Shown in pieces: positions 5,107-52,517 of a stretch of DNA of 64,000 bases; the stretch's first letter is position 1, and each line of letters begins with the position of its first letter. The DNA is from a plasmid. Under the pieces are notes generated by a model. The model made no database searches. It was not told the DNA's origin and worked only from the letters and a program-made list of their open reading frames with translations. The DNA is taken from sequence record NZ_CP102839.1; one strand, given 5' to 3'. A program made the translations under genes and the position numbers.

Positions 5107-5890
5107 GGCGTTCTCCTGGCTGACTGATTTTCAGTCACTATGCCTGTCAGAATGCAATGAGTCAATATGTGATCGTTTGGTGTTTTTTGGTGTCTTCATA
5201 TGGTGATCATTTTGATGTCATCTTTATCAGGGAGTGTCGTTTTGCGGTCCGTTGCGGTTTAGCGGTATTCTCCGCAGCGCCGCCACTTATCCACCGTTTC
5301 TGTGGATAACGCTATATGTAGTGGCTCCGTCAGCTGAGAACGGCACAAGATATGGTGTCCGCGCCGGCAGCCGCGCGGCCGCTCCCCTGCCTTCCTTCCC
5401 CTGTTGATTTCGCTTTTCACGGTATTTACGTTTTTTCCGCAATTGTGGCACCGGCCAAAAGGTATTTTCCGGTGGTTGCGGGCGTAAAAGTCACAGGGTG
5501 AAAAAATAAGGGGGCAAATTATCAGCCGGCCTGATGTGTGAAGCCCGGCAGGGTTATACAGGGCAGGTGAAAAGGGACAGGGAGAAGCATCATGAAGACG
5601 CCAGGCATGCTGTTTGTGCTGCAGCTGTGCGCCGGGTTCCTGACGGGCCGTGATATCAGACAGGAAGTGCGCGTGAAAAAGACGACGAGTCCATTTTGCC
5701 CTTCAGTGCCTGTTTAACCGCCTCAAATGCTTCCTGATGTTTGATATCCATCGCGTCTCCTGTTGTGTTTACGGCGGATTTAGTGTTTTAATATGCATTA
5801 AAATGTTCAAATATGAACATTTTCAGACTGTAAACACAGGCGGAATATAACAAACTAATCCACCCGTACAGAGCATGGGAGTGCGGCGAA

Positions 5891-6139
5891 TTGACCGGAT
5901 TTGACTTGATCCTTTGGCGACGGGGCCTGAACTGGACCCAGGAACGCGCCGCGGCAGAGCTCGGCATCAGCCGTACCAGCCTGGTAAAATATGAGGACGG
6001 TGAGGCTGTGCCCCGGACGATACAACTTGCCACCGCTGCACTCACGCTGAAAGCGGAATGGCCAACAATGAAGACCATGAGCAAAGACAGGCTGCTGCGG
6101 CAGCTGAAGAACGAAGTGCTGAGGCTCAGTAATGAATGA
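5891..6139 (+). CDS. XRE-family HTH transcriptional regulator
   Basis: ...LNWTQERAAAELGISRTSLVKYEDGEAVP is a classic HTH_XRE. Confidence 0.55.
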   Translation: MTGFDLILWRRGLNWTQERAAAELGISRTSLVKYEDGEAVPRTIQLATAALTLKAEWPTMKTMSKDRLLRQLKNEVLRLSNE

Positions 6140-7519: not shown

Positions 7520-7756
7520 TCATTCCATCCTTATATTTCCATATAAATCTAAATTAATCCTTAATGTTTCTTTATCAGGCCGTTTGCAGGACGGTCTGGC
7601 CCTCGTTTGTTGGTTTTTGTTCGTTATTTTTCTGTATTTTTCTACATTAGTGCGTCTTTTTGTCTTTACACGCAAACCCGGATACGTAATAATCCATTTG
7701 AATGTTGTATTTTTCCTGATGGATACGGTTTTTTTCTAAATAATGTGAGGTTTGAA
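7520..7756. promoter_or_regulatory. putative parC centromere/promoter region upstream of parM
   Basis: AT-rich non-coding region immediately upstream of parMR. I could not resolve clear iterons by eye. Confidence 0.3.
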
Positions 7757-8731
7757 ATGCGTATTTTTGTTGACGACGGTTCCACCAATATCAAACTGGC
7801 ATGGGTGGCAGACGGTGAAGTGAAAACGTTGATCAGTCCGAACAGCTTTAAACCAGAATGGTCCATGACGCTGCTGACTGATTCAACGGGGCCGGCTTCC
7901 GCCAACTATGAAATTGACGGGGAAAAGTACAGCTTTGACCAGCTGAGCCCTGATGCCGTGCGCACCACGGAAACCCGCTATCAGTACAGTGATGTGAATG
8001 TAGTCGCTATCCACCACGCGCTGATGCAGTCCGGCATTGAACCGCAACCGGTTGACATTGTTGTGACGCTGCCGCTGGGCGAGTATCTGGATGAGAACGA
8101 TCAGCCTGATATGGCCAAAATCGAGCGGAAAAAAGCGAACGTGAAACGCGCGGTGACCGTTCAGGGGCATGAGAGCTTTACCGTGCGTAAAGTCAGTGTG
8201 CTGCCAGAGTCGGTCCCTGCAGGCTTCAGTGTGCTGAAGGATCTGGACGATCTGGACTCCCTGCTGATTGTCGATATCGGTGGAACGACGCTGGATATCG
8301 CGCACGTTCGCAGCAAAATGTCCGGGTTCACCAAGACGCATTGCGATCCTAAAACCGGCGTATCCATCATCACCGAGGCCGTAAAACACGCACTGGATAC
8401 CAGCGTGAGTACCCGTACCAGTTCATATTTTGCCGACCGTCTGATCCAGGCGCGAAATGACGATAGTTTTCTTTCCCGTTATCTTCAGAACGCTGACCAG
8501 CGGGCCCAGGTAATGAAGGTGCTGCACGAGCGTGAAAAAGCCCTGACGCACCGCGTCACCGATTCAGTTGGCCGCTTTGCCGGCTTCACACACGTCATGG
8601 TTGTCGGGGGCGGCGCCAGCCTGGTCGCCAGCGCAGTGAAGCAGGCCACGGGGGTGAGTGACGATCGCTTCTTCGTCAGCGATAACCCGCAGTTCGATCT
8701 GGTATTGGGCATGGTGGCAATGAAGGGCTGA
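7757..8731 (+). CDS. parM: ParM/StbA actin-like plasmid segregation ATPase
   Basis: MRIFVDDGSTNIKLAWVADGE...NSF...YSFD..SPDAV.TT...QYSDVNVVA.HHAL...IERKKANV...DIGGTTLDI...HVMVVGGGA closely parallels R1 ParM. The ORF-track start at 7607 is an upstream in-frame extension. The true start is ATG 7757. Confidence 0.9.
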   Translation: MRIFVDDGSTNIKLAWVADGEVKTLISPNSFKPEWSMTLLTDSTGPASANYEIDGEKYSFDQLSPDAVRTTETRYQYSDVNVVAIHHALMQSGIEPQPVDIVVTLPLGEYLDENDQPDMAKIERKKANVKRAVTVQGHESFTVRKVSVLPESVPAGFSVLKDLDDLDSLLIVDIGGTTLDIAHVRSKMSGFTKTHCDPKTGVSIITEAVKHALDTSVSTRTSSYFADRLIQARNDDSFLSRYLQNADQRAQVMKVLHEREKALTHRVTDSVGRFAGFTHVMVVGGGASLVASAVKQATGVSDDRFFVSDNPQFDLVLGMVAMKG

Positions 8732-8733
8732 GT

Positions 8734-9177
8734 ATGACTGATAACCGTAAGTGCTCGTTTTATATCTATCCGGATCGCAATGCGGCGGACCGGGTAGCCG
8801 ACGGATTTCTTGAGAAACTGCCTCAGAAAGAGCGCGGCCGCGCGATGCGCGCCATGATGCTCTGTGGTGCCGCGCTGATGAAACAGGACGAACGCCTGCC
8901 GTTCCTGATCGCTGAATTTCTGACGGAAGGCACCTCGATGCAGGATATTCAGCGGATCATCAGCAGTACGCTGCCGCAGCAGGATACAGGAGAGATGGCG
9001 CGTCTGTTTGAGGCGTTTCTGCAGGCCACCGGCGGCGCCAGTAATACGTTACCGCCGACAGGCGGATCAAGGCCGGAAAACAGCCCTGCCGTGACTCCCG
9101 AACCGGCGGCACCGGAGGATAAGAATCTGGAAGAAACCCGTAAGAACGTCCAGCATCTGTTCCCGGATGATGACTAA
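8734..9177 (+). CDS. parR: ParR/StbB centromere-binding adaptor
   Basis: Immediately follows parM. ...PQKERGRAMRAMMLCGAALMKQDERLPFLIAEFLTEGTSMQDIQRIISS parallels R1 ParR. Confidence 0.75.
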   Translation: MTDNRKCSFYIYPDRNAADRVADGFLEKLPQKERGRAMRAMMLCGAALMKQDERLPFLIAEFLTEGTSMQDIQRIISSTLPQQDTGEMARLFEAFLQATGGASNTLPPTGGSRPENSPAVTPEPAAPEDKNLEETRKNVQHLFPDDD

Positions 9178-9281
9178 GGTGAACTTCCGCGCCATCGCTG
9201 ACAGCTCTAATGTGGAAAATGTGGTGCTGATCAGCGGTGTGCCTGCAGCAGCGGCAGACACTCTGCCGCCGGCAATTTAAC

Positions 9282-9357
9282 TTGATTATATGGCTCATTC
9301 GCCGTATTGTTAAGGCTCATTTTTCGGTAGCGCCCCGCCTGGCGAAGGAGTAAAACC
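9282..9357 (+). promoter_or_regulatory. leading-region promoter/leader cassette, degenerate copy 1
   Basis: TTGATT at 9282, then ggctcatt core, then gGTAGCGCCCCGcCTGGCGaAGGAG block ending 6 nt before ATG 9358. Confidence 0.5.
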
Positions 9358-9864
9358 ATGCAATCATTCCCCCTGTTCGTTTCCCGTGCTGTACCGGTGA
9401 TCATCAGTGACCATTGCCTGCGGCAGCAGCGCAGCTCCCTGCACCACACGTCATGCCAGATTAACCTGAGTTCAGGAAGTCACCTGCGCTCATGGCCTTT
9501 CTGCACGCTATCCAGGCGGGAAATAAGCGACCGGCAACCGGCTAAGCCCCGCGGTTACTGGTTCAGTCACTGTGGCCGGGATGTCATGTTTACGGGGCAT
9601 ATCGATGAGGCAGATCCTATGAAACAGGTCTACTACAACGAAGGCTGGAGCGGTTCGAGCAAGTATACGTTTGAAGTTTATCAGCAGGAGAACGGGAGTT
9701 ACCGGGCGCTGGTCCGCAAATGGAATGGCAAAATCAATAAGGTGCAGCAGGAAACACAGTACCTGTCTGACACGCGAGAGGGACTGAAACTCCAGGACTA
9801 TCCCCGCACGCGCCAGGTGAAAATATTTCTGAATTCTGACTTCTGGGAGAAGGGTGATGATTAA
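9358..9864 (+). CDS. hypothetical protein, first ORF of the leading-region array
   Basis: The start is fed directly by the conserved GGAG leader block. 168 aa with no recognisable domain. An internal alternative start MKQVYYNEG at 9619 has a GAGG RBS. Confidence 0.45.
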   Translation: MQSFPLFVSRAVPVIISDHCLRQQRSSLHHTSCQINLSSGSHLRSWPFCTLSRREISDRQPAKPRGYWFSHCGRDVMFTGHIDEADPMKQVYYNEGWSGSSKYTFEVYQQENGSYRALVRKWNGKINKVQQETQYLSDTREGLKLQDYPRTRQVKIFLNSDFWEKGDD

Positions 9865-10354
9865 GATGGTTAGCGTCGTTCCGCAGCCGGAAACGGTGAA
9901 GATGCTCCGGGGAAAAATGGGCATGACTGAAACCGCATTAGGGGCCGTCATGGGGTATGAACTGCGCGCCTGGCAGCGTAAGGAAGCCATCAGCGACGAC
10001 CTCAGTCAGTACAACAAGACCAGTCTTCGGCCGGGCGAATATAACATGCTGATGCTGATCGCCGGCGTGCATCCTGATTACCGCCTGAACAGGACATTCA
10101 GCCCGGATGATATGGTTAAAGAGCCTGCCACGGCCGAAGACGTTCGCCGCCTGCGTCTGGCGCTGGGGCTGAAACACGCAGAAATTGCAGCGCTGTTTGG
10201 CTATAAGCCGGCGTCATGGCAGACCAAAGAGAAGGCCGCACAGCGTGGCGTGAAGCTCAAGACCGGGGAATTCAACTTCCTGTTACTGCTGGCCGGTGAG
10301 CATCCGTCACTGCAGCTGGTTGAAAAAGTGAAACAAGATCAGCTGCCGACCTGA
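9854..10354 (+). CDS. tandem-HTH DNA-binding protein (internal duplication)
   Basis: Two homologous halves, each with an HTH-like segment ending ...LIAGVHP and ...LLAGEHP. There is no similarity to a known regulator that I can name. Confidence 0.5.
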   Translation: MMIKMVSVVPQPETVKMLRGKMGMTETALGAVMGYELRAWQRKEAISDDLSQYNKTSLRPGEYNMLMLIAGVHPDYRLNRTFSPDDMVKEPATAEDVRRLRLALGLKHAEIAALFGYKPASWQTKEKAAQRGVKLKTGEFNFLLLLAGEHPSLQLVEKVKQDQLPT

Positions 10355-10471
10355 TAAAAGCCCGTTAATTCTGGTTTTTTTATAAAATACTGTATTTACA
10401 TATAGGACAAAATGTCCTAATATATATTTGTGGCCGGGCAAGGTGCTCAGGTCCCCTACCGAGGGAAATAT

Positions 10472-10921
10472 ATGAAATTTTCAGCAGAAGAACTCAACAT
10501 TATCCGCCAGGCGGATGCCATTATTGCCAGCAAAATTACCACCACGGATTTTATTACCGGTGCAGACGCCGCGCGTTCCTTGCTGCGGTTTCGTCTTGCT
10601 GCAGAACCACGCGAATCATTCTGCGCGTTCTTTCTCAACAGTCAGAATGGCGTGATCGCCTTTGAAGAACTGTTTCAGGGAACTATCAACAGTGTCACCG
10701 TTCATCCGCGTATCGTCCTGCAACGCGCCCTGCATCATAATGCCGCCGCCGTGGTACTGGCGCATAACCATCCTTCCGCTTTCACTGAACCCAGTCAGGC
10801 TGACAAGCTGATCACCGAGCGTCTGGCGCAGGTGCTGGGGATGGTTGACGTCAAAGTCCTCGATCACCTGATTGTGGGCGGCTGCGATATTTTCTCTTTT
10901 GCTGAACATGGTCTGATTTGA
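10472..10921 (+). CDS. RadC-like JAB/MPN domain protein (UPF0758)
   Basis: ...AVVLAHNHPSAFTEPSQADKLIT... is the JAMM-like H-x-H-x7-S-x2-D motif of the RadC/YeeS family, which is common in plasmid leading regions. RBS GAGGGA before ATG 10472. Confidence 0.8.
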   Translation: MKFSAEELNIIRQADAIIASKITTTDFITGADAARSLLRFRLAAEPRESFCAFFLNSQNGVIAFEELFQGTINSVTVHPRIVLQRALHHNAAAVVLAHNHPSAFTEPSQADKLITERLAQVLGMVDVKVLDHLIVGGCDIFSFAEHGLI

Positions 10922-10965
10922 CAACCGCGGCCGCACAGTGGTGCGGCCGGCTCTGGAGGCTTGCT

Positions 10966-11232
10966 ATGGGCAATAAATATACCGTGCCACTGAACGTGGG
11001 CGCAATCCGCGAAAGCTGTTTCCGTCCCGCTGACAAATGGACCCCGCCGACGGGGGATGAACTCCGCTATTTGCTGGAAAATGTGCTCAACCTGAGTCAG
11101 GAGGGGCTTGCGCGACATGTTGGCGTTAACGGCAGAACGGTGCGCCGCTGGGTGAACGGAGAAAGCGACATCGCGTATTCCGTCTGGTGCATCCTTTGCA
11201 TCGATGCCGGCTTACCGCCGATCTGGAAATAG
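10966..11232 (+). CDS. small HTH-domain protein
   Basis: MGNKYTVPLN...LSQEGLARHVGVNGRTVRRWVNGES is an HTH. GGAGG RBS. Preceded by a GC hairpin. Confidence 0.5.
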   Translation: MGNKYTVPLNVGAIRESCFRPADKWTPPTGDELRYLLENVLNLSQEGLARHVGVNGRTVRRWVNGESDIAYSVWCILCIDAGLPPIWK

Positions 11233-11779
11233 CAGCGCAAAACACCGGCGCGAAAATGTGCTTCCTGAAGAGAAGCTGAAGGGCTTGTGCAACTGCGAAC
11301 CGCAGTACCGAACATCGGTACTGGAATCCAGTGAGGGGCTGAGCCGCTATCTGGCCGGGGCTGAAAACTGAGAAGGTGGCCGCCTCCTGCAGGGGCTGTA
11401 CGGGCATTAAACCTGTATTGCTCTGAAACGCGCTGTACGCCTCTCTGAGTGCTTCTTTAAAAAAGCTGCAACCTTCTCGCATTAATCGCTTTGACGTGTC
11501 CAGGCGCGCATTCAGCCCCATTCTGATTTGATTTCGGCCTGGTATTTGCCAGTGAGCCTACTTTAGATATCCGCAGAGCGTTTCCTTCCTGTTCATTTCA
11601 GGTCAGTTGCCGTCATTCCCTGGTGGCTCCACCGTTCCCTCAGCGGGTTCAGGCTATCGCGGGTGTCTGATGCCTGGACCTCTGCACCATGCCGGCAAAG
11701 TGCCGCCATCTGGATCTAAAAGCAATATTTACAGGGACAGGCGTCAAGGGAAAAACAAAGAAAAGTAATCATATAATGC

Positions 11780-11874
11780 TTGCTTTATATGGCTCATTAG
11801 ACGTATAATAATCACATCGAAAGGCAATGAGGCTTTTCGCGGTAGCGCCCCGACTGGCGCAGGAGTAAAAAATT
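11780..11874 (+). promoter_or_regulatory. leading-region promoter/leader cassette, copy 2
   Basis: TTGCTT at 11780, 18-nt spacer, TATAAT at 11804, hairpin (ggctcatt/aatgaggc), GTAGCGCCCCGACTGGCGCAGGAG, then ATG 11875. Confidence 0.7.
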
Positions 11875-12054
11875 ATGAGTAAAGCACTGACCCCTTCCCA
11901 GCTTAAAGCTGAACTGGACACGCAGAAAGATGCGCTGCTGAAGGCGTGCCTGTATGCCCTCAACGAAATCCCTAACCGCCGTTTAAGTGGTCCATATTCA
12001 TCCACGTATGCGCTGGCCGCGCAGGTCAGTAAACTGCTCCAGAGCTGCAAATAA
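11875..12054 (+). CDS. hypothetical 59-aa protein (below the ORF-track cutoff)
   Basis: MSKALTPSQLKAELDTQKDALLKACLYALNEIPNRRLSGPYSSTYALAAQVSKLLQSCK sits directly behind cassette copy 2. It is followed by a GC hairpin at 12063-12081. Confidence 0.45.
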   Translation: MSKALTPSQLKAELDTQKDALLKACLYALNEIPNRRLSGPYSSTYALAAQVSKLLQSCK

Positions 12055-12094
12055 TCATTGAAGGGCTGGCATTACCAGCCCTGTTCAACCCTTA

Positions 12095-12126
12095 CGGTAG
12101 CGCCCCGCATGGCGCAGGAGTCTGAA
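12095..12126 (+). promoter_or_regulatory. partial cassette, 3' leader block only
   Basis: cGGTAGCGCCCCGcaTGGCGCAGGAGtctgaa then ATG 12127. Confidence 0.5.
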
Positions 12127-12987
12127 ATGTCATCTAAAAATACTCTCCCGTCAGTCGATCTGATGTACTGCCAGCATGGCGGTGAAGTGATCCCGTCCAT
12201 TGCTATTGAGCGCATCATCTCGTTGCGGGATGAAGGTATCCGCGTCTATCTCGACGGCATAGACAAGCTGCGAAAAGCGCGCGATCTGATGCAGCAGGCC
12301 GGAGGCTGCCAGTACCTCTATGACTACGACAAAGCCGTAGAGAGCGCCATCAAATGGAGCGACACCACGCCAGATCAGGCCGAAACGGCTATTTCCCGCG
12401 TTATCGACGGAAAAATCTGGGATCGGCTGATGACGGAAACCGGTATGTATACGCTGATGAGCAACAAGCAACGTCAGGAATGGGATCGGCAGGTGGCAGG
12501 CAAAGAAATGCCGCCGATAACGCTGGATAACGTTATGAGTACGTTCCGGCACCTGAACGCAAGCAAGGCTGATACCTTCACGCAAGGGCTGATTGATATC
12601 TTTAAATCCCTGTCGTGGGATTATAAAACCAATAACCCCTGCATGTTTGGCAAGCGTATCATCATCGCGCCGTTGCTCGATGTCTGGCGCAGTGGCTGGG
12701 TGCGCTTCAGCTCAGACGGGCACACCAAAATTGACGATCTGGCGCGGCCGTTCTACGTGCTGGACGGGCGTAACGTGCCTGATTACCGCGTTTCTGACGG
12801 TGCCAGACTGGATGCCTTTTTCAGTGAAAACCAGTTCAACGGTAAGGTGTTCGAGTGTGATTACTTCAGCGTGCGATATTACAAAAAGGGCAGCGCCCAC
12901 ATTACGTTTAAACGCCCGGAGCTGGTTGAGAAGATCAATAATCTGGTTGCCAGTCACTATCCCGGAATGTTACCCCCTCGCGTGTAA
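12127..12987 (+). CDS. hypothetical 286-aa leading-region protein
   Basis: MSSKNTLPSVDLMYCQHGGEV... is fed by the leader block. It is the largest unknown ORF in the array and has no recognisable motif. The ORF-track start 12058 is an upstream extension. Confidence 0.6.
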   Translation: MSSKNTLPSVDLMYCQHGGEVIPSIAIERIISLRDEGIRVYLDGIDKLRKARDLMQQAGGCQYLYDYDKAVESAIKWSDTTPDQAETAISRVIDGKIWDRLMTETGMYTLMSNKQRQEWDRQVAGKEMPPITLDNVMSTFRHLNASKADTFTQGLIDIFKSLSWDYKTNNPCMFGKRIIIAPLLDVWRSGWVRFSSDGHTKIDDLARPFYVLDGRNVPDYRVSDGARLDAFFSENQFNGKVFECDYFSVRYYKKGSAHITFKRPELVEKINNLVASHYPGMLPPRV

Positions 12988-13082
12988 TGCAGACGGCAGG
13001 CCGCATTTGCGGCCTGAAATATAAACAGGGAAAGGAAGTATTCCCCGGCCTGAGAAAATCATGCCGGGCATGTATTTATTGC

Positions 13083-13176
13083 TTGAATAATATGGCTCAT
13101 TAGACGTATAATGATCACATCGAAAGGCAATGAGGCTTTTCGCGGTACCGCCCCGACTGGCGCAGGAGTAATAAAC
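13083..13176 (+). promoter_or_regulatory. leading-region promoter/leader cassette, copy 3
   Basis: TTGAAT 13083, 18-nt spacer, TATAAT 13107, hairpin, GTAcCGCCCCGACTGGCGCAGGAG, then ATG 13177. Confidence 0.7.
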
Positions 13177-13515
13177 ATGGCTATTCAATCCCTTCAGTTC
13201 CGTAACGGCTCCGTTTCTCTTGGTGATGTTTTTGTTTCCAGCTGGGGTTATGAGCAGACAAATACCTGTTTTTATCAGGTGATCGCCCTGCGCGGTAAGA
13301 AAACCGCTGTACTGCGCCGCATCGCTGCGCAGCAGGTGAAAGCAGACAGTGCAATGTCTGGCGAGTTAAAGCCGGTATTGAACGACTTTAAAGGCGAACC
13401 CGTGACCCGTCGCATCTGTGAAAACCATGAGCATCCGTCTGTCAGCATTGACGAGTACGAACAGGCTTATAAGACCGATCCTAACGAAAGCCATTTTTAC
13501 AGCACCTGGGGCTGA
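13177..13515 (+). CDS. hypothetical 112-aa protein
   Basis: MAIQSLQFRNGSVSLGDVFV... sits behind cassette copy 3. Confidence 0.55.
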   Translation: MAIQSLQFRNGSVSLGDVFVSSWGYEQTNTCFYQVIALRGKKTAVLRRIAAQQVKADSAMSGELKPVLNDFKGEPVTRRICENHEHPSVSIDEYEQAYKTDPNESHFYSTWG

Positions 13516-13612
13516 CCGCCTGCCACGCCCCGCAAGGGGCGTATAGTCGAAGACTTATTCAACCAAAACGTGAATACTATGCGAAATAACAAGGCGCTCA
13601 GGACGCAGATAC

Positions 13613-13843
13613 ATGGCGGAAACAGTTTATCAGGCGCGGAGGCGTTTTTACCTTCTCCGTTTTCGGCGCAGTCGTAACCCGGACACACTGGAAAAAATGT
13701 ACGAATCCATGCGGGATCGTGGACAGGTGCCGGAGGAGGACACCGCGGCTTTTGAGGCTGCCGCCGACCATCGCCGCGCAGAGCTGGCATCGGGATGCAT
13801 CTGGGATAAGATCCCGCCGCATGTCTGGCAGTATGTAAAATAA
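13613..13843 (+). CDS. hypothetical 76-aa protein
   Basis: MAETVYQARRRFYLLRF... has no cassette upstream and only a weak RBS. It is followed by a rho-independent terminator. Confidence 0.4.
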   Translation: MAETVYQARRRFYLLRFRRSRNPDTLEKMYESMRDRGQVPEEDTAAFEAAADHRRAELASGCIWDKIPPHVWQYVK

Positions 13844-13848
13844 TCACA

Positions 13849-13873
13849 GCGCCCCCACGAGGGGCGTTTTTTT
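13849..13873 (+). terminator. rho-independent terminator
   Basis: gcgcccccacgaggggcg stem followed by T7. Confidence 0.6.
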
Positions 13874-13903
13874 GCTTGCGCATATGTCTCATTAGACGTA
13901 TAA
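13870..13903 (+). promoter_or_regulatory. partial cassette, promoter half only
   Basis: TTGCTTgcgcatatgtctcattagacgTATAAT. The leader half is replaced by unrelated sequence. Confidence 0.45.
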
Positions 13904-13954
13904 TGTTTTTACTGATTCAAATCAGTACCTTCCTAAATAGCCTTACAGGTGCAT

Positions 13955-14068
13955 TATGACCTCTTCTGAAATCCTCCATAACCTCCCTCAGATTATCACG
14001 GCCGTGGCCGCCCTCATTACTGCCATTACCGGGCTGATTAAAGTCATGAAGGATAAGGGTAAGGACTG
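13955..14068 (+). CDS. putative 37-aa single-helix membrane peptide
   Basis: MTSSEILHNLPQIITAVAALITAITGLIKVMKDKGKD: hydrophobic core with a basic tail. Lies behind the partial promoter copy and is followed by a GC hairpin. Confidence 0.3.
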
Positions 14069-14104
14069 AACCGCCGCAGGGGGCGACAGCCCCCTGCATC
14101 CCTA

Positions 14105-14141
14105 ACCGGCAGCGCCCCGACTGGCGCAGGAGTAAAAAAAA
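14105..14141 (+). promoter_or_regulatory. partial cassette, 3' leader block only
   Basis: ccGGcAGCGCCCCGACTGGCGCAGGAGtaaaaaaaa then GTG 14142. Confidence 0.5.
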
Positions 14142-14378
14142 GTGACAACGCTGCATATTCAAGACATTCCCACTGATGGCGCGCCGCCTGTTTGTGCAGG
14201 CCGCTCAATCTCAGATGATGACCTTTGCGCCTCATGCCAGCATCTCGACTATCGCCCTGGGCACCTCAGCGCCTGCCTGCTGTCAGGTTGCGGGCGTGAC
14301 GACTGGCCTTCAGAACTGGATGCAAACGGCTACAGCGTTGCCTGTAGCGGCTATGAGCGTGAAAAATCGCTTGATTAA
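14142..14378 (+). CDS. hypothetical Cys-rich 78-aa protein (GTG start)
   Basis: ...CAGRSISDDDLCASCQHLDY...CLLSGCG...VACSGYE has at least 7 Cys, so it is possibly metal-binding. Confidence 0.45.
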   Translation: MTTLHIQDIPTDGAPPVCAGRSISDDDLCASCQHLDYRPGHLSACLLSGCGRDDWPSELDANGYSVACSGYEREKSLD

Positions 14379-14462
14379 CATGGCTCATTAGACGTACAAT
14401 AATTACATCGAAAGGCATCCGGTCTTTCGCGGCAGCGCCCCGTCTGGCGCAGGAGTTTTACA
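14371..14462 (+). promoter_or_regulatory. leading-region promoter/leader cassette, copy 4
   Basis: TTGATT 14371, 18-nt spacer, TACAAT 14395, hairpin, GcAGCGCCCCGtCTGGCGCAGGAG, then ATG 14463. Confidence 0.65.
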
Positions 14463-14873
14463 ATGCACGGTAACGTAAATGAAATTTGCGCAAGGCTTCT
14501 CGACAGTTTTGATCCACAGCAGCGGATCAGCCTGCTGATCTGGACTGCTGAAGATGTCCATGACTGCACCAGTGATATGAACCTCACTGACGATGAGGCC
14601 GAAGCCGTTCTGGCAGAAATCGCGGAATGCAGTTCACACAGCCGTTATGGCGTCGGAAAAGATACCGTCTGGAGCCTGGCAAAGCAGGTGCGCGAAGATG
14701 CCGCCCGCGATCGAAAAATAGAGGTCAATGCCGAGGCGCTGCAAAAAGTCGTGGCGCTGGCGGCGCAGTTTATCCGGCTGGAAGAAATCCAGTCTGGTGA
14801 AGGAGCTGCACGCCGACTTTATCCGCAGGAGTCTGAGGCGCTGGAGTGCATCACGAAGGTGATTAACGGCTAA
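14463..14873 (+). CDS. hypothetical acidic 136-aa protein
   Basis: MHGNVNEICARLLDSFDPQQ... is strongly acidic (D/E-rich), which is compatible with a DNA-mimic but unproven. Confidence 0.55.
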   Translation: MHGNVNEICARLLDSFDPQQRISLLIWTAEDVHDCTSDMNLTDDEAEAVLAEIAECSSHSRYGVGKDTVWSLAKQVREDAARDRKIEVNAEALQKVVALAAQFIRLEEIQSGEGAARRLYPQESEALECITKVING

Positions 14874-14900
14874 TTCACGCAGTAACGCAGCGAACTTTCA

Positions 14901-14934
14901 CAGTAGCGCCCCGACTGGCGCAGGAGGAAAAAAC
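14901..14934 (+). promoter_or_regulatory. partial cassette, 3' leader block only
   Basis: caGTAGCGCCCCGACTGGCGCAGGAGgaaaaaac then ATG 14935. Confidence 0.5.
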
Positions 14935-15240
14935 ATGTCCCAGAATGAAGCCTATTACGACACGCTGGCCCTGATTGAAAAGGGGCAATGGTGTTTCGGC
15001 AGTATGGACGAAGAAAACGAAGAGCGGGCAATCAAGGCCGCTAAGGCGCTGGCGCTGTTTGCGCGCCTGAATGAGCAGGACTGCGACGGACACCCGGTTT
15101 CCGAAATCATCGTTGATTTTATCGCTAACCTGATGCACCTGGGGGAAGCGATAAATTTTCGTGTGCTCGATGAGGAAAGCGCGGTGATCCCGTTGGTCAG
15201 GATCGCAGCCGTACACTTTAACGCTGAAACAACGTCATAG
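14935..15240 (+). CDS. hypothetical acidic 101-aa protein
   Basis: MSQNEAYYDTLALIEKGQWCFGSMDEENEE... sits behind the leader block. Confidence 0.55.
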   Translation: MSQNEAYYDTLALIEKGQWCFGSMDEENEERAIKAAKALALFARLNEQDCDGHPVSEIIVDFIANLMHLGEAINFRVLDEESAVIPLVRIAAVHFNAETTS

Positions 15241-15307
15241 TAATCATGTGAATCAGAAGGGGGCAGGCGTGATCCTGCCCCCAAAAATGGACAGGGGAAA
15301 GAGTTCT

Positions 15308-15343
15308 CCCGCCTGAAAATATTCAGGCAGGCGGGAATATTTT
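15308..15343 (+). terminator. rho-independent terminator
   Basis: cccgcctg...caggcggg stem followed by a T-rich run, immediately before cassette copy 5. Confidence 0.55.
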
Positions 15344-15345
15344 GC

Positions 15346-15439
15346 TTGATTAATATGGCTCATTAGACGTATAATAATCACATCGAAAGGCAATGAGGCT
15401 TTTCGCGGTAGCGCCCCGACTGGCGCAGGAGTACAGAAA
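15346..15439 (+). promoter_or_regulatory. leading-region promoter/leader cassette, copy 5
   Basis: TTGATT 15346, 18-nt spacer, TATAAT 15370, hairpin, GTAGCGCCCCGACTGGCGCAGGAG, then ATG 15440. Confidence 0.7.
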
Positions 15440-15880
15440 ATGTCTACTGAACTGAATCAACCCGCCATCACTGCACGCATTATCCCCAATAACCGCCGCA
15501 TGGCCTTTCTGCCACGCCTGTTCGGCGCCTGGTATCTCACAGGTGAGGCCGGTGTCTACAACCACGCACGTTCTCTCTGCGCCGATTATCAAGGCGGTTC
15601 CTGGGAGTTCGCCGAACTGTCTTGCGGTAGCGGCTTCATGTACCCACTGAGCGCAGAGCGCTTCACGGTATCGGTTAGCGGTAACTGGTTCGAAGGGGAA
15701 CTGTCCGCAGAAGCTACCGGTATCGTGCTGACCCTGTTCACCCTGAACCACATGATCTGGCACGCACATGATGCCGGCTATGAGCACATCTGCGACATGC
15801 TGATCACCCAGCAGGAAAAGCTCAAATTATATGCCGACCAGCACGCCGAAGCCGGTTTGATTTACCGCGCGATTGACTGA
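15440..15880 (+). CDS. ArdB/KlcA-family antirestriction protein
   Basis: ...AFLPRLFG...GEAGVY...LCADYQGGSWEFAEL..GSGFMYPL...GNWFEGELSAEATGIVLTLFTLN...LIYRAID matches the conserved KlcA/ArdB pattern (FLP..FG, LC..Y.GG.W, GF.MAP, GELSA.AAGIV.TLFAL, IYRAID). Confidence 0.8.
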   Translation: MSTELNQPAITARIIPNNRRMAFLPRLFGAWYLTGEAGVYNHARSLCADYQGGSWEFAELSCGSGFMYPLSAERFTVSVSGNWFEGELSAEATGIVLTLFTLNHMIWHAHDAGYEHICDMLITQQEKLKLYADQHAEAGLIYRAID

Positions 15881-15923
15881 AGCGGCGGCCCCCGCGAGGG
15901 GGCCAATACTGACAGGGGGAAAA

Positions 15924-16208
15924 ATGTTAACACTAACTGATATTCGCGCCAGCAATACGGTGCTGGTTACGGAATTTGACGGCGTGCGTGCTGTGCATTT
16001 CTGTCTGCATGAAAAATTAAGCGGTAGCGACAACGATCTGTGGTTTCCGCTTGCCAATGGGGCCGACCTGTTCGAGGCACTGGAAAGCATTATGTGCATC
16101 AATTTTGCCGCTGCTAACGTTGTCTCGCTGGAGTTCCTGCGGCAGAACGGGAAGTGCAAAGACTACCGGATCACCTACAACAAGGCCAAATTCAAGCCAT
16201 TATGTTAG
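15924..16208 (+). CDS. hypothetical 94-aa protein
   Basis: MLTLTDIRASNTVLVTEFDG... has a GGGGGA RBS. The ORF-track start 15873 is an upstream extension through a GC hairpin. Confidence 0.5.
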   Translation: MLTLTDIRASNTVLVTEFDGVRAVHFCLHEKLSGSDNDLWFPLANGADLFEALESIMCINFAAANVVSLEFLRQNGKCKDYRITYNKAKFKPLC

Positions 16209-16271
16209 ATATCTGACATCATTAAATGTTCATATTTGAACAAAATTAAATTAAAAAATACGTCTGATAAG

Positions 16272-16364
16272 TTGATAAAATGGCTCATTAGACGTATAAT
16301 TATTACATCGAAAGGCAGTTGAGCCTTTCGCGGTAGCGCCCCGACTGGCGACGAGGTAAAAAAA
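16272..16364 (+). promoter_or_regulatory. leading-region promoter/leader cassette, copy 6
   Basis: TTGATA 16272, 17-nt spacer, TATAAT 16295, hairpin, GTAGCGCCCCGACTGGCGacGAGG, then ATG 16365. Confidence 0.7.
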
Positions 16365-16598
16365 ATGGAACTCAATGATACTGCAAAATTACCTGACTCT
16401 GATGCACGGAAAATTAACGCCGTAGCGTCTCAGGCATACCCTCTTGGCCTCCTGCCTAATCTGAAAATTAACTTCTACTCTATTGACGCCATTCAACTTG
16501 AACTGCGTGACAACAGTGGTGATCTTATCTGGCGAGATTTCACGTTCTCCCGCGATTTTATCAACGGTTTTATGCCTTATATCAGACCAATAAATTAG
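16365..16598 (+). CDS. hypothetical 77-aa protein
   Basis: MELNDTAKLPDSDARKINAV... sits behind cassette copy 6. Confidence 0.5.
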   Translation: MELNDTAKLPDSDARKINAVASQAYPLGLLPNLKINFYSIDAIQLELRDNSGDLIWRDFTFSRDFINGFMPYIRPIN

Positions 16599-16651
16599 CA
16601 CTGAATATCGACGGGAGCGGGGGAGAAACTCCCCCGGAAGGAGATTAAGAA

Positions 16652-16972
16652 ATGGTATTAACCGGTATTGAAACAGTAAAGGTAGCGGTGATCTGTACAG
16701 GCCACGTCAGCCATCAAGATTCAGAGATTATCCCTGAGTTTCTCTGGAACAACTGGAAAGAATCCGGAGAGTTCTGGATAAGCAGTACTGCTCACGGTTG
16801 GTTATTTCGGTTGTGTGCTCTGCCCGATGAATGGGAGGAGCGTCTGAAAAATTTTGGAGTAAGTGATGGCTGCATATCAAATCTTAGAGTGCTGGAATGT
16901 GAAGGATATGACTGGGTTCATTTCCAGGCTGATGCACCCATCGTGGAGGAGCTTCAGCACTGGGACTGGTAA
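16652..16972 (+). CDS. hypothetical 106-aa protein
   Basis: MVLTGIETVKVAVICTGHVSHQDSEIIPEF... has a GGAGA RBS preceded by a gggagcgggggagaaactcccccgg hairpin. Confidence 0.5.
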   Translation: MVLTGIETVKVAVICTGHVSHQDSEIIPEFLWNNWKESGEFWISSTAHGWLFRLCALPDEWEERLKNFGVSDGCISNLRVLECEGYDWVHFQADAPIVEELQHWDW

Positions 16973-17074
16973 AAATCTGGAACACTAAAGGGGGTTTAAA
17001 AAGCAGAGAAAAAAAGGGAGCCGGATTGCGAGAACAATCCGGCAGGTTGACAAAAGAAAATGTGAGGTTTGCTT

Positions 17075-17206
17075 ATGTCATTATCCATTCTACAGCTTGC
17101 CGAGGATCTTGCAAAGGGTAAGCGAATGAGAGTACCACCGATGAACGGACCGGAGTGGCGACACTTCTGTTTCTGGCTTGAATATTACATGGGATACAGT
17201 ATGTAA
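17075..17206 (+). CDS. putative 43-aa ORF
   Basis: MSLSILQLAEDLAKGKRMRVPPMNGPEWRHFCFWLEYYMGYSM is followed 10 nt later by a + strand terminator. It competes with the antisense ORF 17073-17267, and the terminator polarity favours the + strand. Confidence 0.3.
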   Translation: MSLSILQLAEDLAKGKRMRVPPMNGPEWRHFCFWLEYYMGYSM

Positions 17207-17215
17207 AGTAACGAA

Positions 17216-17243
17216 CGGCGCTCATGGAAGCGCCGTTTTTTTT
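17216..17243 (+). terminator. rho-independent terminator closing the leading-region array
   Basis: ggcgctcatggaagcgcc stem followed by T8. Confidence 0.65.
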
Positions 17244-17263
17244 AACTTTCAGCAGGGGGAATT

Positions 17264-17605
17264 TCACGCCTGGACTGGCGTTTTATCATCAGTAGATGAA
17301 GAGACCCGCTTTCTCTGACGTGTTCTTTTTCCTTCAGTAATCTCTTTTAAATCTTTAAGCGTCACGTCATGAAAACCAAAGTTTTTAAGGTGCTCAAGGA
17401 TTTCGCTGAGTGTGTATCCCTTGTTTTTAATCAGCGTCTCAATATCACTTTTCAGGGAATCAAGTACATCTCGTTTCTGTAATCTTTCTTGCGTCACATC
17501 TGGGAGTTCAGCCAGCTGACCTCGAATAGATTCGATGTCTGTTGTGCTGTACAGCTTCGATTTTTTGGCAACCATTCTGGAATCCTCCACCGGAAAATTT
17601 TTCAT
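17264..17605 (-). CDS. hypothetical Lys-rich protein adjacent to oriT
   Basis: MKNFPVEDSRMVAKKSKLYSTTDIESIRGQLAELPD... has a basic C-terminus. The ORF-track start 17683 is an upstream extension. Confidence 0.4.
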   Translation of the reverse strand: MKNFPVEDSRMVAKKSKLYSTTDIESIRGQLAELPDVTQERLQKRDVLDSLKSDIETLIKNKGYTLSEILEHLKNFGFHDVTLKDLKEITEGKRTRQRKRVSSSTDDKTPVQA

Positions 17606-17689
17606 TGTATCTACCGAAAAAATCATTACAAGCAGAGCAGAATTTTCTGCGTAAAAATTTGGATAACCAGCTCCGGAAATCATAATCCC

Positions 17690-17972
17690 TTAGCGTTAGA
17701 GGAAGCGTAGCCTATCCCGTTCTCTGTGAAACACAGGCGATGATGTGCCTTGCATGAATATCAATATACCTGAACTAGCGCAGCGTACTCCCTTTGTCAT
17801 CTGGCATACAGGTTGCAAATTTGCTAAACTCATTCGCGAAGTTCAAAAGCGGGACAGGATATGTTTTGTATTACCGCCACCACGGTGGCAGCAATCCAAA
17901 ACTCCTGGTCAGGGCGAAGCCCCGACACCCCAGACTGTGCTAACTGTTGGACTGAAAGGAAGATTTAGCGTC
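17690..17972. promoter_or_regulatory. putative oriT / nikA promoter region
   Basis: Non-coding region immediately upstream of nikA, where oriT lies in R64-type systems. Contains the palindrome gccaccacggtggc around 17870-17885. The nick site is not identifiable by eye. Confidence 0.3.
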
Positions 17973-18284
17973 ATGAGTAAGAGTGAGCGACGTAACAGAA
18001 CAGCCACTCTTCCGCCGGTAAGGTGCCTTCCGGAAGAGCGGGATGAGATACGTCAAAAGGCGGAGGATGCGGGTCTCAGCATAGGTGCATTTATGCTTAG
18101 GGCTGCGTTAGGAAGGAAGATTGCTCCGCAGACAGATCACAAGCTCATTAACGAACTCTCACGTCTTGGCGGTTTACAGAAGCATCTCTTTAAAGAAGGG
18201 AACGGGGTCGGCAGTAAGGAGTACGCAGAGATACTGCAGGCCATCAAGGCAGCCATTTTCAGGATAGAGCAAAAGAACGACTAA
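17973..18284 (+). CDS. nikA: NikA-like ribbon-helix-helix relaxosome accessory protein
   Basis: MSKSERRNRTATLPPVRCLPEERDEIRQKAEDAGLSIGAFMLRAALGRKI..TDHKLINELSRLGGLQKHLF..G...GSKEYAEILQAI parallels R64 NikA (RHH core, TD...L.EL.RLG..QKHLF, KEYAE). The ORF-track start 17745 is an upstream extension. AAGGAAG RBS. Confidence 0.75.
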   Translation: MSKSERRNRTATLPPVRCLPEERDEIRQKAEDAGLSIGAFMLRAALGRKIAPQTDHKLINELSRLGGLQKHLFKEGNGVGSKEYAEILQAIKAAIFRIEQKND

Positions 18285-18286
18285 AT

Positions 18287-20215
18287 ATGAACGCCATCAT
18301 TCCACCCAAACGTCGCGACAGAAAGTCCAGCTTTGTTCAGCTGGTCGCGTATGTTTCCGTGCGTGATGATGTTCCGTTAAAAGACGAGCTGAAAGAAGAC
18401 GAGCGTTTCCAGCGTCCGTCGCGTTCCCGCCAGGCCATTTTTGATCGCCTTGTTGACTACATGAACCGTAGTGAAGGAACGATCATTGAACAGATTTCTG
18501 ATATGACTCCTGAAGGTGATATACGCTGTTCTGTTGACGGTGTTATCTGCCAGCATAACCTGATGTCAGTTGAAACAGCTGCAATGGAGATGAACAGCAT
18601 TGCCATGCAGAACACGCATGTTAAGGACGCGGTTTATCACTATATCCTGAGCTGGCAGGAAGATGAAAATCCATCTGACGATCAGGTTTTTGACAGTGTT
18701 AAACACTCACTCAAACGCCTGGGTATGGAAGAGCACCAGTACGTAGCGGCGATTCACCGTGACACGGATAATCTGCATGTTCATATTGCTGCTAACCGCG
18801 TTCACCCGGTTTCTTATCGCGCGGCTAATGTCTGGAATGACGCGGATAAACTTCAGCGTACCTGCCGGGAACTGGAACTGAAGCACGGATTTAAAGTGGA
18901 TAACGGAAGCTGGGTTCGTGATGCTGACAACAACATTGTGCGGGCCAGAAAAGGGTATCGCAATGCACCACGTTCAGCGCGACAGCTTGAACACTTCTCT
19001 GATAAAGAGTCCCTTCATCATTTTGCAGTCCAGCATGTTCGTAAGCCTGTTAATGCCATGTTCCGTGAGAAGAACGCGTCATGGGAAAAACTGCATCAGG
19101 TCATGAATGATGCTGGTTTAATGTTAGAGACTTCCGGCAAAGGGCTGATCGTGCGTGATGTGTGTGGCGACGAGAAACTGGCCGTTAAATCATCGCGGGT
19201 TCACCCTGGTATGACGCTTTCCCGTCTTGAGCCTGCGCTGGGAACCTTTGTTCCCTCACCACGTTCTGCGGAAATGGTTAAGCAAAGTGTTCAGACGTCT
19301 TACAGTGACAAACTGCATGTCCGCGATCGTGGTGCCCGTGCGGAGCGCCGGCAGGCACGCGCTGACGCCCGTATCGATTTGCGCGAACGCTACGAGAAGT
19401 ACCGCAACGCCTGGAAAAAACCTGACCTTCATGCCGCTGAACGATTCCGGGCTGTGTCCGCTGCATTTAAAGAACAGAAGACCCATATCCGGGATAACGA
19501 GAAAGACGCGCATATGCGTAAGCTCATGTACCACATCGTGGAGTTTGAACGTGAGAAGTCGATGGCAGCGCTGCGTATTGCACTGAAGGCAGAACGCCAG
19601 AAGTTGTATGACGAGGGCATGATGCGGCCGCTGACCTACCGTGCCTGGACCGAACAACAGGCGCTTCACGGCGATCAGGCTGCGCTCAGTCAGTTGCGTG
19701 GCTGGTCTTACCGACAGAATCGTAAAAACCGGACACCGCAGGCCTCTGACAATATTATTTACTGTGCACCTGCAGATGACACCTCGTTGCTCAAAGCAGA
19801 TGGTTACGAGGCCCGCCTGCATCGTGACGGCGCGGTTGTCTATTCCCGCCAGGGGCAGGATGCCATCATTGATCGGGGAGACCGCGTTGAAGTCATTAAT
19901 CCGTATGATGACGGTGACCTCAACACGCGCATTGCCGTTGACATGGTGGCCTGGAAATCAGGCGAGCGTGTCGAATTCAGCCGGGATGGCAGTTTCGCTT
20001 ATGCTGCCGGCGATGCGGTGGCTGCACACAACCTGCATCATCGTGACAGTATCATCGTGCCGAGTGACCGGGAACAATACGACTATACGCGGGAGAAGTT
20101 TAACCAGCTGAAAGGCCGGTATACGGACAGTGAACGGGAAGCACTTCGTCAGCAATATGACGATCGTTATTACGACGATGTTCGCCACAATGACGACAGT
20201 AGTTATAAGCCATAA
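18287..20215 (+). CDS. nikB: MOBP-family relaxase (NikB-like)
   Basis: ...AIHRDTDNLHVHIAANRVHP... is the 3-His HxDxDNxHxH relaxase motif. It sits directly after nikA. 642 aa, shorter than R64 NikB at roughly 900 aa. Confidence 0.8.
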   Translation: MNAIIPPKRRDRKSSFVQLVAYVSVRDDVPLKDELKEDERFQRPSRSRQAIFDRLVDYMNRSEGTIIEQISDMTPEGDIRCSVDGVICQHNLMSVETAAMEMNSIAMQNTHVKDAVYHYILSWQEDENPSDDQVFDSVKHSLKRLGMEEHQYVAAIHRDTDNLHVHIAANRVHPVSYRAANVWNDADKLQRTCRELELKHGFKVDNGSWVRDADNNIVRARKGYRNAPRSARQLEHFSDKESLHHFAVQHVRKPVNAMFREKNASWEKLHQVMNDAGLMLETSGKGLIVRDVCGDEKLAVKSSRVHPGMTLSRLEPALGTFVPSPRSAEMVKQSVQTSYSDKLHVRDRGARAERRQARADARIDLRERYEKYRNAWKKPDLHAAERFRAVSAAFKEQKTHIRDNEKDAHMRKLMYHIVEFEREKSMAALRIALKAERQKLYDEGMMRPLTYRAWTEQQALHGDQAALSQLRGWSYRQNRKNRTPQASDNIIYCAPADDTSLLKADGYEARLHRDGAVVYSRQGQDAIIDRGDRVEVINPYDDGDLNTRIAVDMVAWKSGERVEFSRDGSFAYAAGDAVAAHNLHHRDSIIVPSDREQYDYTREKFNQLKGRYTDSEREALRQQYDDRYYDDVRHNDDSSYKP

Positions 20216-23661: not shown

Positions 23662-23663
23662 GG

Positions 23664-52048: not shown

Positions 52049-52517
52049 ATGGCTTGATAGTGTTACAACACACAGTGCTGCTATCGGCAGCGTGGTACAC
52101 TGACTTGCCTATAGAAACAGGGACTTCAATACGATCTTGAATGCGTTCAGGACTTAGCACTGCAGATTTTTTTGTGAGAAATCATATATATGCGATTATG
52201 TCATATATTGCATATATGCGTGGTTTTATTGTGAGCGATCATTCACGGATCTCCTTTTATAAATTGATCCTTGCTACGCAACATGGTAGTTTACAACGGT
52301 TTGTAGGAATTACTTGGGTGGGACGTTCCCGGAATAGCGTCCAAAGGGAAGGGGTGATGAATTTACGGCCCCTGAATGCAAAAACCCCCTGAAATCTGCT
52401 ATCAACTTGGCGGTGGATTCAGAAATCAGGGGGTCCAAAAGCAGGCGCTGGCCTGTGAAGGATTATAGCAAATGCAGATTCTAACACAACCCCCACTCGC
52501 CATAAGTTCGGGCGGGT

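Follow-up and report, generated by a model that had tools for sequence, protein, structure and literature searches.

A window of 64,000 nucleotides (nt) from the plasmid record NZ_CP102839.1 carries, next to the origin of transfer (oriT) and the relaxase genes nikA and nikB, a block of small genes (9282–17244) that is in many ways a typical leading-region island. The island as such is already known. What is new is a promoter-leader cassette that is repeated in front of most of its transcription units and that argues for expression by derepression over transcription from single-stranded DNA (ssDNA). In the explanation that we favour, and that we consider probable as a whole, the genes form a CUP-like regulon which is expressed by zygotic induction as long as the recipient is free of repressor, and Orf20, a tandem helix-turn-helix (HTH) protein encoded at one end of the island, is the candidate repressor. 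The block itself would be the establishment island of an IncL/M-type (MOBP, MPF_I) backbone that was probably recombined onto a different oriT-relaxase module.

The cassette is about 100 nt long and comprises a sigma-70 promoter whose 13-nt core abuts the -10 hexamer, two hairpins (HP1 and HP2), the Shine-Dalgarno (SD) motif AGGAG, an A-rich spacer and the ATG. Two sequence boxes recur in it. Box P, the putative promoter, reads TTGnnn, 17–18 nt, TATAAT, with the invariant core GGCTCRTTAGWCG directly in front of the -10; six copies were found at three mismatches or fewer (before the genes at 11875, 13177, 13956, 14463, 15440 and 16365), and one variant precedes orf19-orf20. Box U, CGGTAGCGCCCCGACTGGCGCAGGAG, is followed by 5–9 nt, often A-rich, and the start codon. 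It is present in eight copies at the same tolerance plus one more, follows the variant promoter and five of the other Box P promoters, and stands as a promoterless HP2-SD leader before the genes at 12127, 14142 and 14935. The distance from Box P to the start codon is fixed by the leader at about 55–75 nt. Both boxes are confined to the island and to its + strand, with a chance expectation of zero in the 64-kb window, and pOXA-48 has 10 copies of Box P. Judging from this arrangement, the 18 genes, all on the same strand, are likely to constitute at least eight transcription units, most of them headed by a cassette. The two boxes are the most non-random feature of the island and were overlooked by the initial annotation.

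The leader shows clear signs of a conserved structure. HP1 (CGAAAGGC..GCCUUUCG) lies between the promoter and Box U, while HP2, within Box U, has the form GCGCC-CCGACU-GGCGC and ends directly at the SD. In an alignment of 15 leaders from the window, pOXA-48, an Erwinia contig (L008) and pIncFII_3846 (L005), 91% of the cells of the two-hairpin structure hold standard pairs, and five pairs change on both sides, for example from G-C to C-G, from A-U to G-C and from G-C to U-A. The observed covariation score was reached by none of 500 shuffles, and in a control with the 3' partners slid by 1–3 columns pairing amounted to 34–47%. Eight cells are G.U pairs in the + sense, which on the transferred strand (T-strand) would be A.C mismatches. 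Since the hairpins covary and contain G.U pairs only in the + sense, they would function in the mRNA, and thus the leader probably acts as RNA. A further compensatory variant of HP2, CACC..GGUG, occurs in a Serratia lineage (L010). A pairing of the promoter core GGCTCATT with the HP1 loop (AATGAG) was noticed as well and was dismissed as coincidence, being found in three copies only.

The spacer of a sigma-70 promoter requires no fixed sequence, and an invariant core in this place consequently points to a bound factor. Among 24 cassettes of the window, pOXA-48 and the Erwinia contig, the 13-nt core carries about as much information as the -10 itself. Between orthologous cassettes of the window and the Erwinia contig, the core is 92% and the -10 hexamer 93% identical, as compared with 48% upstream of the -35, 57% in the -35 region and 66–69% in the flanks; the coding DNA of both is about 73–76% identical over most of the island. 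The core follows the divergence of Orf20. The Erwinia contig, whose Orf20 is 87% identical to the window protein, has the same core as the window; pIncFII_3846, with 46% identity in Orf20, has ATGTCTTTTGTCG in five out of five cassettes; and Serratia Rep3/MPF_T plasmids (L010–L012), whose Orf20 homologue is 42% identical, have TATCAAACGATG in all three of theirs. In one of the latter (L010, 10800–11850), TATCAAACGATG-TATAAT promoters and the HP2-SD leader were seen before a J-domain protein and small open reading frames (ORFs), beside the relaxase.

Three regulators encoded in the island come into question for this factor, namely Orf20, KorC and Hha. We prefer Orf20, because pIncFII_3846 has neither korC nor hha and yet keeps its Orf20 homologue together with the cassettes, and because the regulator operon has a variant Box P of its own. 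This variant, with a leader that has no HP1, precedes the operon in the window, in pOXA-48 (L003, 6012), in the Erwinia contig (9439) and in pIncFII_3846, with the same variant core at the orthologous sites of pOXA-48 and the Erwinia contig. Within the orf19-orf20 promoter (9305–9335), the core's 8-mer GGCTCATT is found again 21 nt downstream, right after the -10, and may represent a second site; this recurrence is common to the window and pOXA-48 and absent in the Erwinia contig. Orf20 itself is the product of an internal duplication (halves 34% identical, E 4e-14). Its AlphaFold2 model (pLDDT 86.9, pTM 0.84) contains two Xre-type HTH domains, which singly resemble Aca1, Aca2, Aca10, HipB, HigA and C-proteins (Foldseek, weak E-values). 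A pseudo-dimeric protein of the modelled kind could plausibly fit a non-palindromic site. Each half of Orf20 also matches single-domain proteins of about 80 amino acids (aa) in some 2900 other plasmids, mostly annotated as hypothetical and including sizes typical of IncX3 and IncX4. A search of genome contigs with an Orf20 alignment returned three loci and no more.

On the minus strand, positions 17889–17854 read GCCACCGTGGTGGC-GGTAATACAAAACA-TATCCTG/T (the slash marks nic), in which the MOBP nic consensus YATCCTG/Y comes after an inverted repeat. By itself, a motif of eight bases such as this is no rarity (13 matches, with 7.7 expected), so that the case for polarity rests on the repeat beside it and on its location, which is between orf35 and nikA. 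In pOXA-48, the nic sequence of pCTX-M3, ACATCTTGT, has a single exact occurrence on the same strand and in the same place (ACATCTTG/T; PMC8125031), and orf35 of pCTX-M3 is a leading-region gene that represses nikA-nikB-traH (PMC6112013). Because the nic motif and the inverted repeat lie on the minus strand and the nic of pOXA-48 is oriented likewise, the minus strand would be the T-strand and the template for the island genes, with nic at 17855/17854. The island, 0.6–8.6 kb from the motif and within the first ~30 ORFs of the leading side, would enter the recipient first; nikAB lies on the other side. The leading-region position and the T-strand as template, both of which had been proposed by the initial annotation, are thereby supported.

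Put together, these features suggest the following course of events. From nic, the minus strand would enter the recipient, where its complementary strand is made. With no repressor in the recipient, all Box P promoters would fire together, i.e., by zygotic induction through derepression, and the leaders would yield stable, well-translated mRNAs for KlcA and the uncharacterised proteins. At the far end of the island, the operon with the variant Box P would produce Orf20, which would accumulate and shut the promoters including its own. Such a timing of island expression is what we infer. Work on pOXA-48 found that orf20 and korC are essential for maintenance and that their silencing destabilises the plasmid, with the targets stated as unknown, and that recipients of orf20-deleted pOXA-48 elongate and cease dividing (PMC12365149; PMC12361523). 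In our scheme, loss of Orf20 would leave the regulon switched on, which would explain why the gene is essential, since simultaneous derepression of 7–10 near-consensus promoters would account for the toxicity. A bolder version may also be envisioned, which we put forward tentatively: Orf20 would be the master repressor of an undescribed, CUP-like yet non-homologous regulon that spans the whole IncL/M-type leading region, pOXA-48 included, with lethal derepression of the 7–10 promoters as the reason for its essentiality, and in Box U a new cis-acting RNA element would set the stability or translation of each establishment gene.

Other readings of the cassettes have to be weighed against this explanation. 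They might be strong constitutive modules, each consisting of promoter, mRNA stabiliser and insulated ribosome-binding site, that work without a dedicated repressor. The invariant spacer would then result from concerted evolution or from a need for promoter strength, while silencing would come from H-NS/Hha or from KorC. Concerted evolution has something to recommend it, since the junction at 16270–16351 shows that the repeats do recombine, and the core has no dyad symmetry; however, a core that stays 92% identical despite flanks of 48–69% and nevertheless switches wholesale with a diverged Orf20 speaks against it. Silencing by other means fits the island's Hha as well as an H-NS-like protein that IncL/M plasmids encode (PMC8125031), but pIncFII_3846 retains its cassettes without hha or korC, and in pOXA-48 a single KorC site, at KorC's own promoter, was found and no others (PMC12365149). 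Such modules would fit the reported adaptation of leading regions to efficient translation (PMC13478746), but keeping seven consensus-like promoters free of repression would carry a high cost, and losing orf20 is indeed toxic (PMC12365149). We thus regard constitutive modules as unlikely. Still less probable, in our view, is that HP2 in Box U is the main control point, serving as a translational operator or processing site for an RNA-binding protein, a small RNA or the ribosome, so that the whole array, internal cistrons included, would be set after transcription. It would fit the HP2-SD unit before three promoterless cistrons, the position of HP2 against the SD, its compensatory changes and the conservation of Box U, its loop CCG and upstream CGG included, across lineages with different promoter cores. 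However, Box U has no antisense counterpart in the rest of the 64-kb window, the repeated leader has no Rfam family match in 9000–18000 at the gathering threshold or at E-values up to 1, its fold-energy z-scores are unremarkable, and the conserved promoter core would be left unexplained. Control at Box U is compatible with repression by Orf20 and does not exclude it.

According to the initial annotation, the island genes are expressed early from incoming ssDNA, which would require promoters of the Frpo/ssi type as in F and ColIb-P9. The T-strand is indeed the predicted template for every island gene, and IncI1 and F plasmids recently yielded new classes of ssDNA promoters upstream of klcA and of ardA, so that unrecognised ones may exist (PMC12672017; PMC13478746). 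Yet no long imperfect hairpin that would rebuild a -35 and a -10 on the T-strand was detected. Minus-strand folds of six cassettes gave small local hairpins only, none of which pairs the -35 with the -10; inverted repeats with arms of more than 21 nt within 300 nt are absent from 9000–18000; and the two largest intergenic regions contain terminator-like hairpins only or fold no better than shuffles (z -1.2). In addition, the promoters have the canonical -35/-10 geometry of duplex sigma-70 promoters, and the eight G.U cells exist in the mRNA sense only. Expression straight from the incoming single strand is consequently quite improbable, and this claim was not sustained. Repression by Orf20 remains the reading that we prefer, although several points weigh against it as well. 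Covariation of inverted repeats could reflect a palindromic DNA site, with HP2 having one G.U cell in favour of RNA. The cassette copies are paralogues, and gene conversion could inflate their identity within a plasmid, a concern that is lessened but not removed by the comparison across lineages. The core is non-palindromic with no evident half-sites, and in Serratia the regulator operon has HP2-SD and no Box P in front, such that autoregulation is not universal. That Box P acts as promoter and as operator is deduced from its sequence. KlcA is the sole link of the island to anti-defence, and klcA/ardB deletions in other plasmids had no detectable effect on restriction (PMC11602122). Finally, the repeats are undescribed in the literature searched, while the original sequence papers of pCTX-M3 (PMC2151408) and pEL60 (PMC535195) lay outside it and may mention them.

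Table 1. Features of the island and of the adjoining transfer genes (positions in the window).
Position	Strand	Feature	Details
9282..9357	+	Variant Box P promoter and HP2-SD leader without HP1, predicted to drive orf19-orf20	TTGATT-N17-TATTGT; core variant GGCTCATTCGCCG
9358..9864	+	orf19, 168 aa, no domain	Homologue of pOXA-48 orf19/DNDJGHEP_0013
9857..10354	+	orf20, 165 aa, tandem Xre-type HTH	Candidate Box P repressor
10395..10423	+	RadC-korC promoter	KorC-type palindrome TAGGACAAAATGTCCTA (10403–10419) between -35 TTTACA and -10 TAATAT
10472..10921	+	RadC-like JAB protein (pOXA-48 orf24)	Pfam RadC, E 1.3e-40
10966..11232	+	KorC homologue, 88 aa, HTH	Weak HTH matches; 94% nucleotide identity to pOXA-48 korC region
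11270..11627	.	Non-coding remnant	76% identity to 3' end and downstream of DGQHR gene (present, IS1-split, in pOXA-48)
11780..11874	+	Full cassette (Box P, HP1, HP2, SD) before 11875	
11875..12054	+	59-aa basic protein	No family match
12095..12126	+	HP2-SD leader alone, promoterless, before 12127	
12127..12987	+	Stand-alone DUF4942 protein, 286 aa	
13083..13176	+	Full cassette before 13177	
13177..13515	+	112-aa protein	Sole match a PHROG family of unknown function
13613..13843	+	Hha/YmoA-family protein	Alternative start 13697; Pfam HHA, E 2.7e-15
13876..13955	+	Box P promoter with distinct leader	Own hairpin ACTGAT..ATCAGT, without Box U
13956..14069	+	Unannotated gene of 37-aa hydrophobic peptide	Conserved, with synonymous differences, in pOXA-48 and Erwinia L008
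14107..14141	+	HP2-SD leader alone before 14142	
14142..14378	+	Acidic protein of 78 aa, 6 Cys	
14371..14462	+	Full cassette before 14463	
14463..14873	+	Acidic DUF1380-like protein, 136 aa	Pfam E 9e-5, below cut-off; isoelectric point (pI) 4.6
14901..14934	+	HP2-SD leader alone before 14935	
14935..15240	+	101-aa acidic protein	
15346..15439	+	Full cassette before klcA	
15440..15880	+	KlcA/ArdB-family antirestriction protein	Pfam Antirestrict PF03230, E 2.4e-24, 85.7 bits (gathering cut-off 25)
15924..16208	+	94-aa protein	No family match
16272..16364	+	Full cassette before 16365, also recombination junction	
16365..16598	+	77-aa protein	31% identity to pOXA-48 orf32
16652..16972	+	DUF5983 protein, 106 aa, acidic	Pfam E 2.4e-16
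17075..17206	+	Unannotated conserved 43-aa ORF	MSLSILQLAEDLAKGKRMRVPPMNGPEWRHFCFWLEYYMGYSM; oriT-proximal end of array
17213..17238	.	Bidirectional terminator-like hairpin	Closes array
17264..17683	-	orf35/YggA-type protein, first gene after nic	Probable start Met37 (17264–17575); 52% identity to pOXA-48 homologue
17854..17889	-	oriT core	Inverted repeat GCCACCGTGGTGGC (17889–17876); nic motif TATCCTG/T (17861–17854)
17973..20215	+	nikA (17973–18284) and MOBP relaxase gene nikB (18287–20215), predicted to be transferred last	Pfam NikA-like, Relaxase

Besides the cassettes, the layout of the island largely agrees with the initial annotation, which had described a one-strand block of genes, separated by terminators, beside oriT-nikAB. 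The region 9282–17244 adjoins oriT-nikAB and contains 16 annotated and two unannotated genes (Table 1), all on the + strand. The 16 annotated coding sequences run from 9358 to 16972 with none annotated on the opposite strand, and the interval from parMR (7757–9177) to oriT holds + strand annotated genes exclusively. Stem-loops or terminator-like sites follow several of the genes (22 found against 10.7 expected). By Pfam, the identities of the KlcA/ArdB homologue (15440), the RadC protein (10472) and the HTH proteins (9857 and 10966) were borne out, and, as had been stated, neither ssb nor psiB nor ardA is among the annotations of the block. The claim that just three genes are recognisable was too narrow, as Hha (13613), DUF4942 (12127), DUF5983 (16652), a weak DUF1380 match (14463) and the KorC homologue have to be added. 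Seven proteins (9358, 11875, 13177, 14142, 14935, 15924 and 16365) are without a Pfam family, and three of these match PHROG families of unknown function and nothing else. Acidic products with a pI of 4.4–4.6 are encoded at 14142, 14463, 14935 and 16652. The cassette marks which of the small ORFs are real, including the two that were missed by annotation.

Some of the genes merit a short comment. Deletion of orf19 in pOXA-48 had no phenotype, and transposon insertions in it were polar on orf20 (PMC12365149). The palindrome in the RadC-korC promoter fits the single KorC site described for pOXA-48 (PMC12365149). The remnant at 11270–11627, which sits in a 642-nt gap upstream of 11875, looks like the leftover of a DGQHR-domain gene that was deleted in this lineage. 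The product of the unannotated gene at 13956–14069 could be a small membrane peptide or a toxin; in pOXA-48, PGAP calls an ORF on the opposite strand there instead. DUF5983 proteins were reported to be encoded downstream of CbtA toxins (PMC10790755). The 43-aa ORF at 17075–17206 is 40% identical (E 8e-14) to an ORF of 43 aa at the same relative position in the Serratia plasmid L010, and tblastn found it in 690 plasmids, including IncX4 mcr-1 plasmids, with the annotation nearly always missing.

The block had also been proposed to be an anti-defence array, and the idea of leading-region anti-defence islands is already published (PMC11541004). It shares with the islands described by Samuel et al. 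(2024) the position, the T-strand as template and one known anti-defence gene. As an array, the proposal finds weak support, with one gene, KlcA/ArdB, belonging to a known anti-restriction family. The profile searches that had been suggested as a check gave no anti-defence match for any other protein (Pfam, NCBIfam, PHROGs, PDB); psiB, ardA and acr families were without a match among the island proteins in Pfam, NCBIfam and PHROGs, and the searches of NCBIfam, PHROGs and PDB sequences with the uncharacterised proteins yielded DUF names at most and no functional lead. Any anti-defence role that goes beyond the KlcA homology would be putative. To call the island a prime place to look for such functions was reasonable; as a hunting ground for anti-defence discovery it is, however, generic.

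From an evolutionary perspective, the plasmid is a mosaic. MOB-suite assigns it to replicon type IncFII. Positions 9242–16351 are syntenic with pOXA-48 (IncL) at 92–97% nucleotide identity, the shared genes being named orf19, orf20, orf24 (RadC), korC and klcA there (PMC12365149), and the novelty of the island had consequently been overstated, given how intensively pOXA-48 is studied. From 16270 onward, the DNA follows the pIncFII_3846 lineage with 91.5% identity. The end of the homology to pOXA-48 and the start of that to pIncFII_3846 both fall inside one repeated cassette (16270–16351), and the position of the switch inside this cassette indicates that recombination at the repeat has swapped the island between backbones. 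The relaxase and oriT are not of the IncL/M type: NikB is 34% identical to NikB of pOXA-48, and the nic motif is TATCCTG/T as compared with ACATCTTG/T. As the oriT-proximal end comes from another lineage, the "missing" ssb is lineage-specific; pOXA-48 carries orf32-ssb-orf33 where the window has 16365, 16652 and the 43-aa ORF.

The block is 100% identical in more than 25 plasmids of Klebsiella and other Enterobacterales. It matches 1222 plasmid records, 733 of which cover at least 80% of the query. By blastn, all occurrences of the cassette fall in about 1170 plasmids, of the IncL/M type and this relative of theirs, mostly with 5–7 copies each. In a metagenome scan, 82 units of Box U were detected; almost all of them precede the same gene families, most are on IncL/M-like contigs, and one further lineage (L046/L048) came to light. 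Single matches in rhizosphere metagenomes were rejected as chance matches inside high-GC genes. pKPN-068, considered as a possible carrier of cassettes without orf20, was discarded as well, as it is merely split by an IS26 resistance region and uninformative. No Box U pattern was found in the IncX4 plasmid, despite its sharing the 43-aa ORF and single-domain relatives of Orf20. On the leading side of this plasmid (pGMI17-001_2, L013), proximal to taxA/taxC, two 300-nt repeats of 99% identity (5675–5974 and 7755–8054) lie upstream of a J-domain protein gene and of another small gene. It seems that repeats upstream of genes recur in the leading regions of different plasmid groups.

Comparison with known systems places the island more precisely. 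With the leading regions of pOXA-48 (IncL) and pCTX-M3 (IncM) it shares gene order, orf19-orf20, RadC-korC, DUF4942, Hha, DUF1380 and klcA, and with pOXA-48 also the Box P/Box U cassettes and an orf35-type gene beside oriT. In contrast, orf35, nikA and nikB come from another lineage, like the whole oriT-proximal end, and orf21–23 and the DGQHR gene are absent from the window. The CUP-controlled regulon of the IncN plasmids pKM101/R46 with its ArdK repressor is said to have been described by Delver and Belogurov in 1997, and we saw the CUP repeats directly in the R46 sequence. There, ardA, ardB and ccg genes are controlled via repeated CUP elements bound by ArdK (PMC6289460). Common to both systems are repeated promoter-bearing elements before several leading-region genes, ardB-type genes included, and a regulator gene, an architectural analogy in which our operator is a predicted one. 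However, the repeat sequences are unrelated, the unit measures ~100 nt as compared with 300–450 nt for CUP, and the window cassette includes an mRNA leader of two covarying hairpins, which is also present before internal cistrons in the absence of a promoter. BLASTP gave no alignment of Orf20 with ArdK and nothing significant with ArdR.

The kil-kor system of the IncP-1 plasmid RP4, in which KorA, KorB and KorC act on klcA, kle and kla, provides a precedent for the proposed timing. Its klcA and establishment neighbours likewise lie on the transferred-strand side and are silenced by plasmid repressors; in transconjugants they are expressed in a burst, klcA rising ~120-fold through lack of the Kor repressors (PMC7314908). 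The window, too, encodes a KorC homologue and has a KorC-type palindrome in the promoter of the operon that encodes it. This operator is single, though, klcA has none, and the element shared upstream of the genes is Box P. The leading regions of F and ColIb-P9 resemble the island in their position next to oriT, the T-strand as template, an ArdB/KlcA-family gene and mostly small uncharacterised genes, whereas the window lacks psiB, ardA, ssb and, in the searches made, hairpins like those of ssDNA promoters, and has predicted duplex sigma-70 promoters. Finally, Aca-controlled anti-CRISPR operons follow the logic that we propose here, an early burst from a strong promoter that a small Xre-type HTH repressor, the product of a gene in the locus, subsequently turns off. 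For the single domains of the Orf20 model, the best structural alignments are those with Aca10, Aca1 and Aca2, which at E-values of 0.35–1 is a resemblance of fold class only. Orf20 differs by its two tandem domains and its putative non-palindromic site, and no anti-CRISPR gene was identified in the island.

Further features were observed in the remainder of the window. An AT-rich block (20497–25000, GC content 0.34–0.40) that starts just after nikB looks like a foreign insertion; it encodes on the minus strand a hybrid sensor histidine kinase/response regulator and a molybdopterin oxidoreductase-like gene and parts nikB from the tra genes, which in pOXA-48 directly follow nikB. Rfam matches were obtained for the repBA pseudoknot of IncL/M-type replication control (52383–52507), for the D1-D4 domain of a group II intron (54819–55044) and for the AAC_AAD leader/attI site of an integron (62405–62477).

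Taken together, the significance of the cassette extends to pOXA-48-type plasmids, by which OXA-48 carbapenem resistance is mainly carried. In 2025, orf20 and korC were found to be essential in two studies, and the promoter core now offers candidate targets for Orf20, namely klcA and about 10 uncharacterised genes. If true, the proposed regulon would explain the toxicity of orf20 loss and show how establishment genes can be timed without ssDNA promoters, and Orf20 would represent a route to making the plasmid poison its own host.

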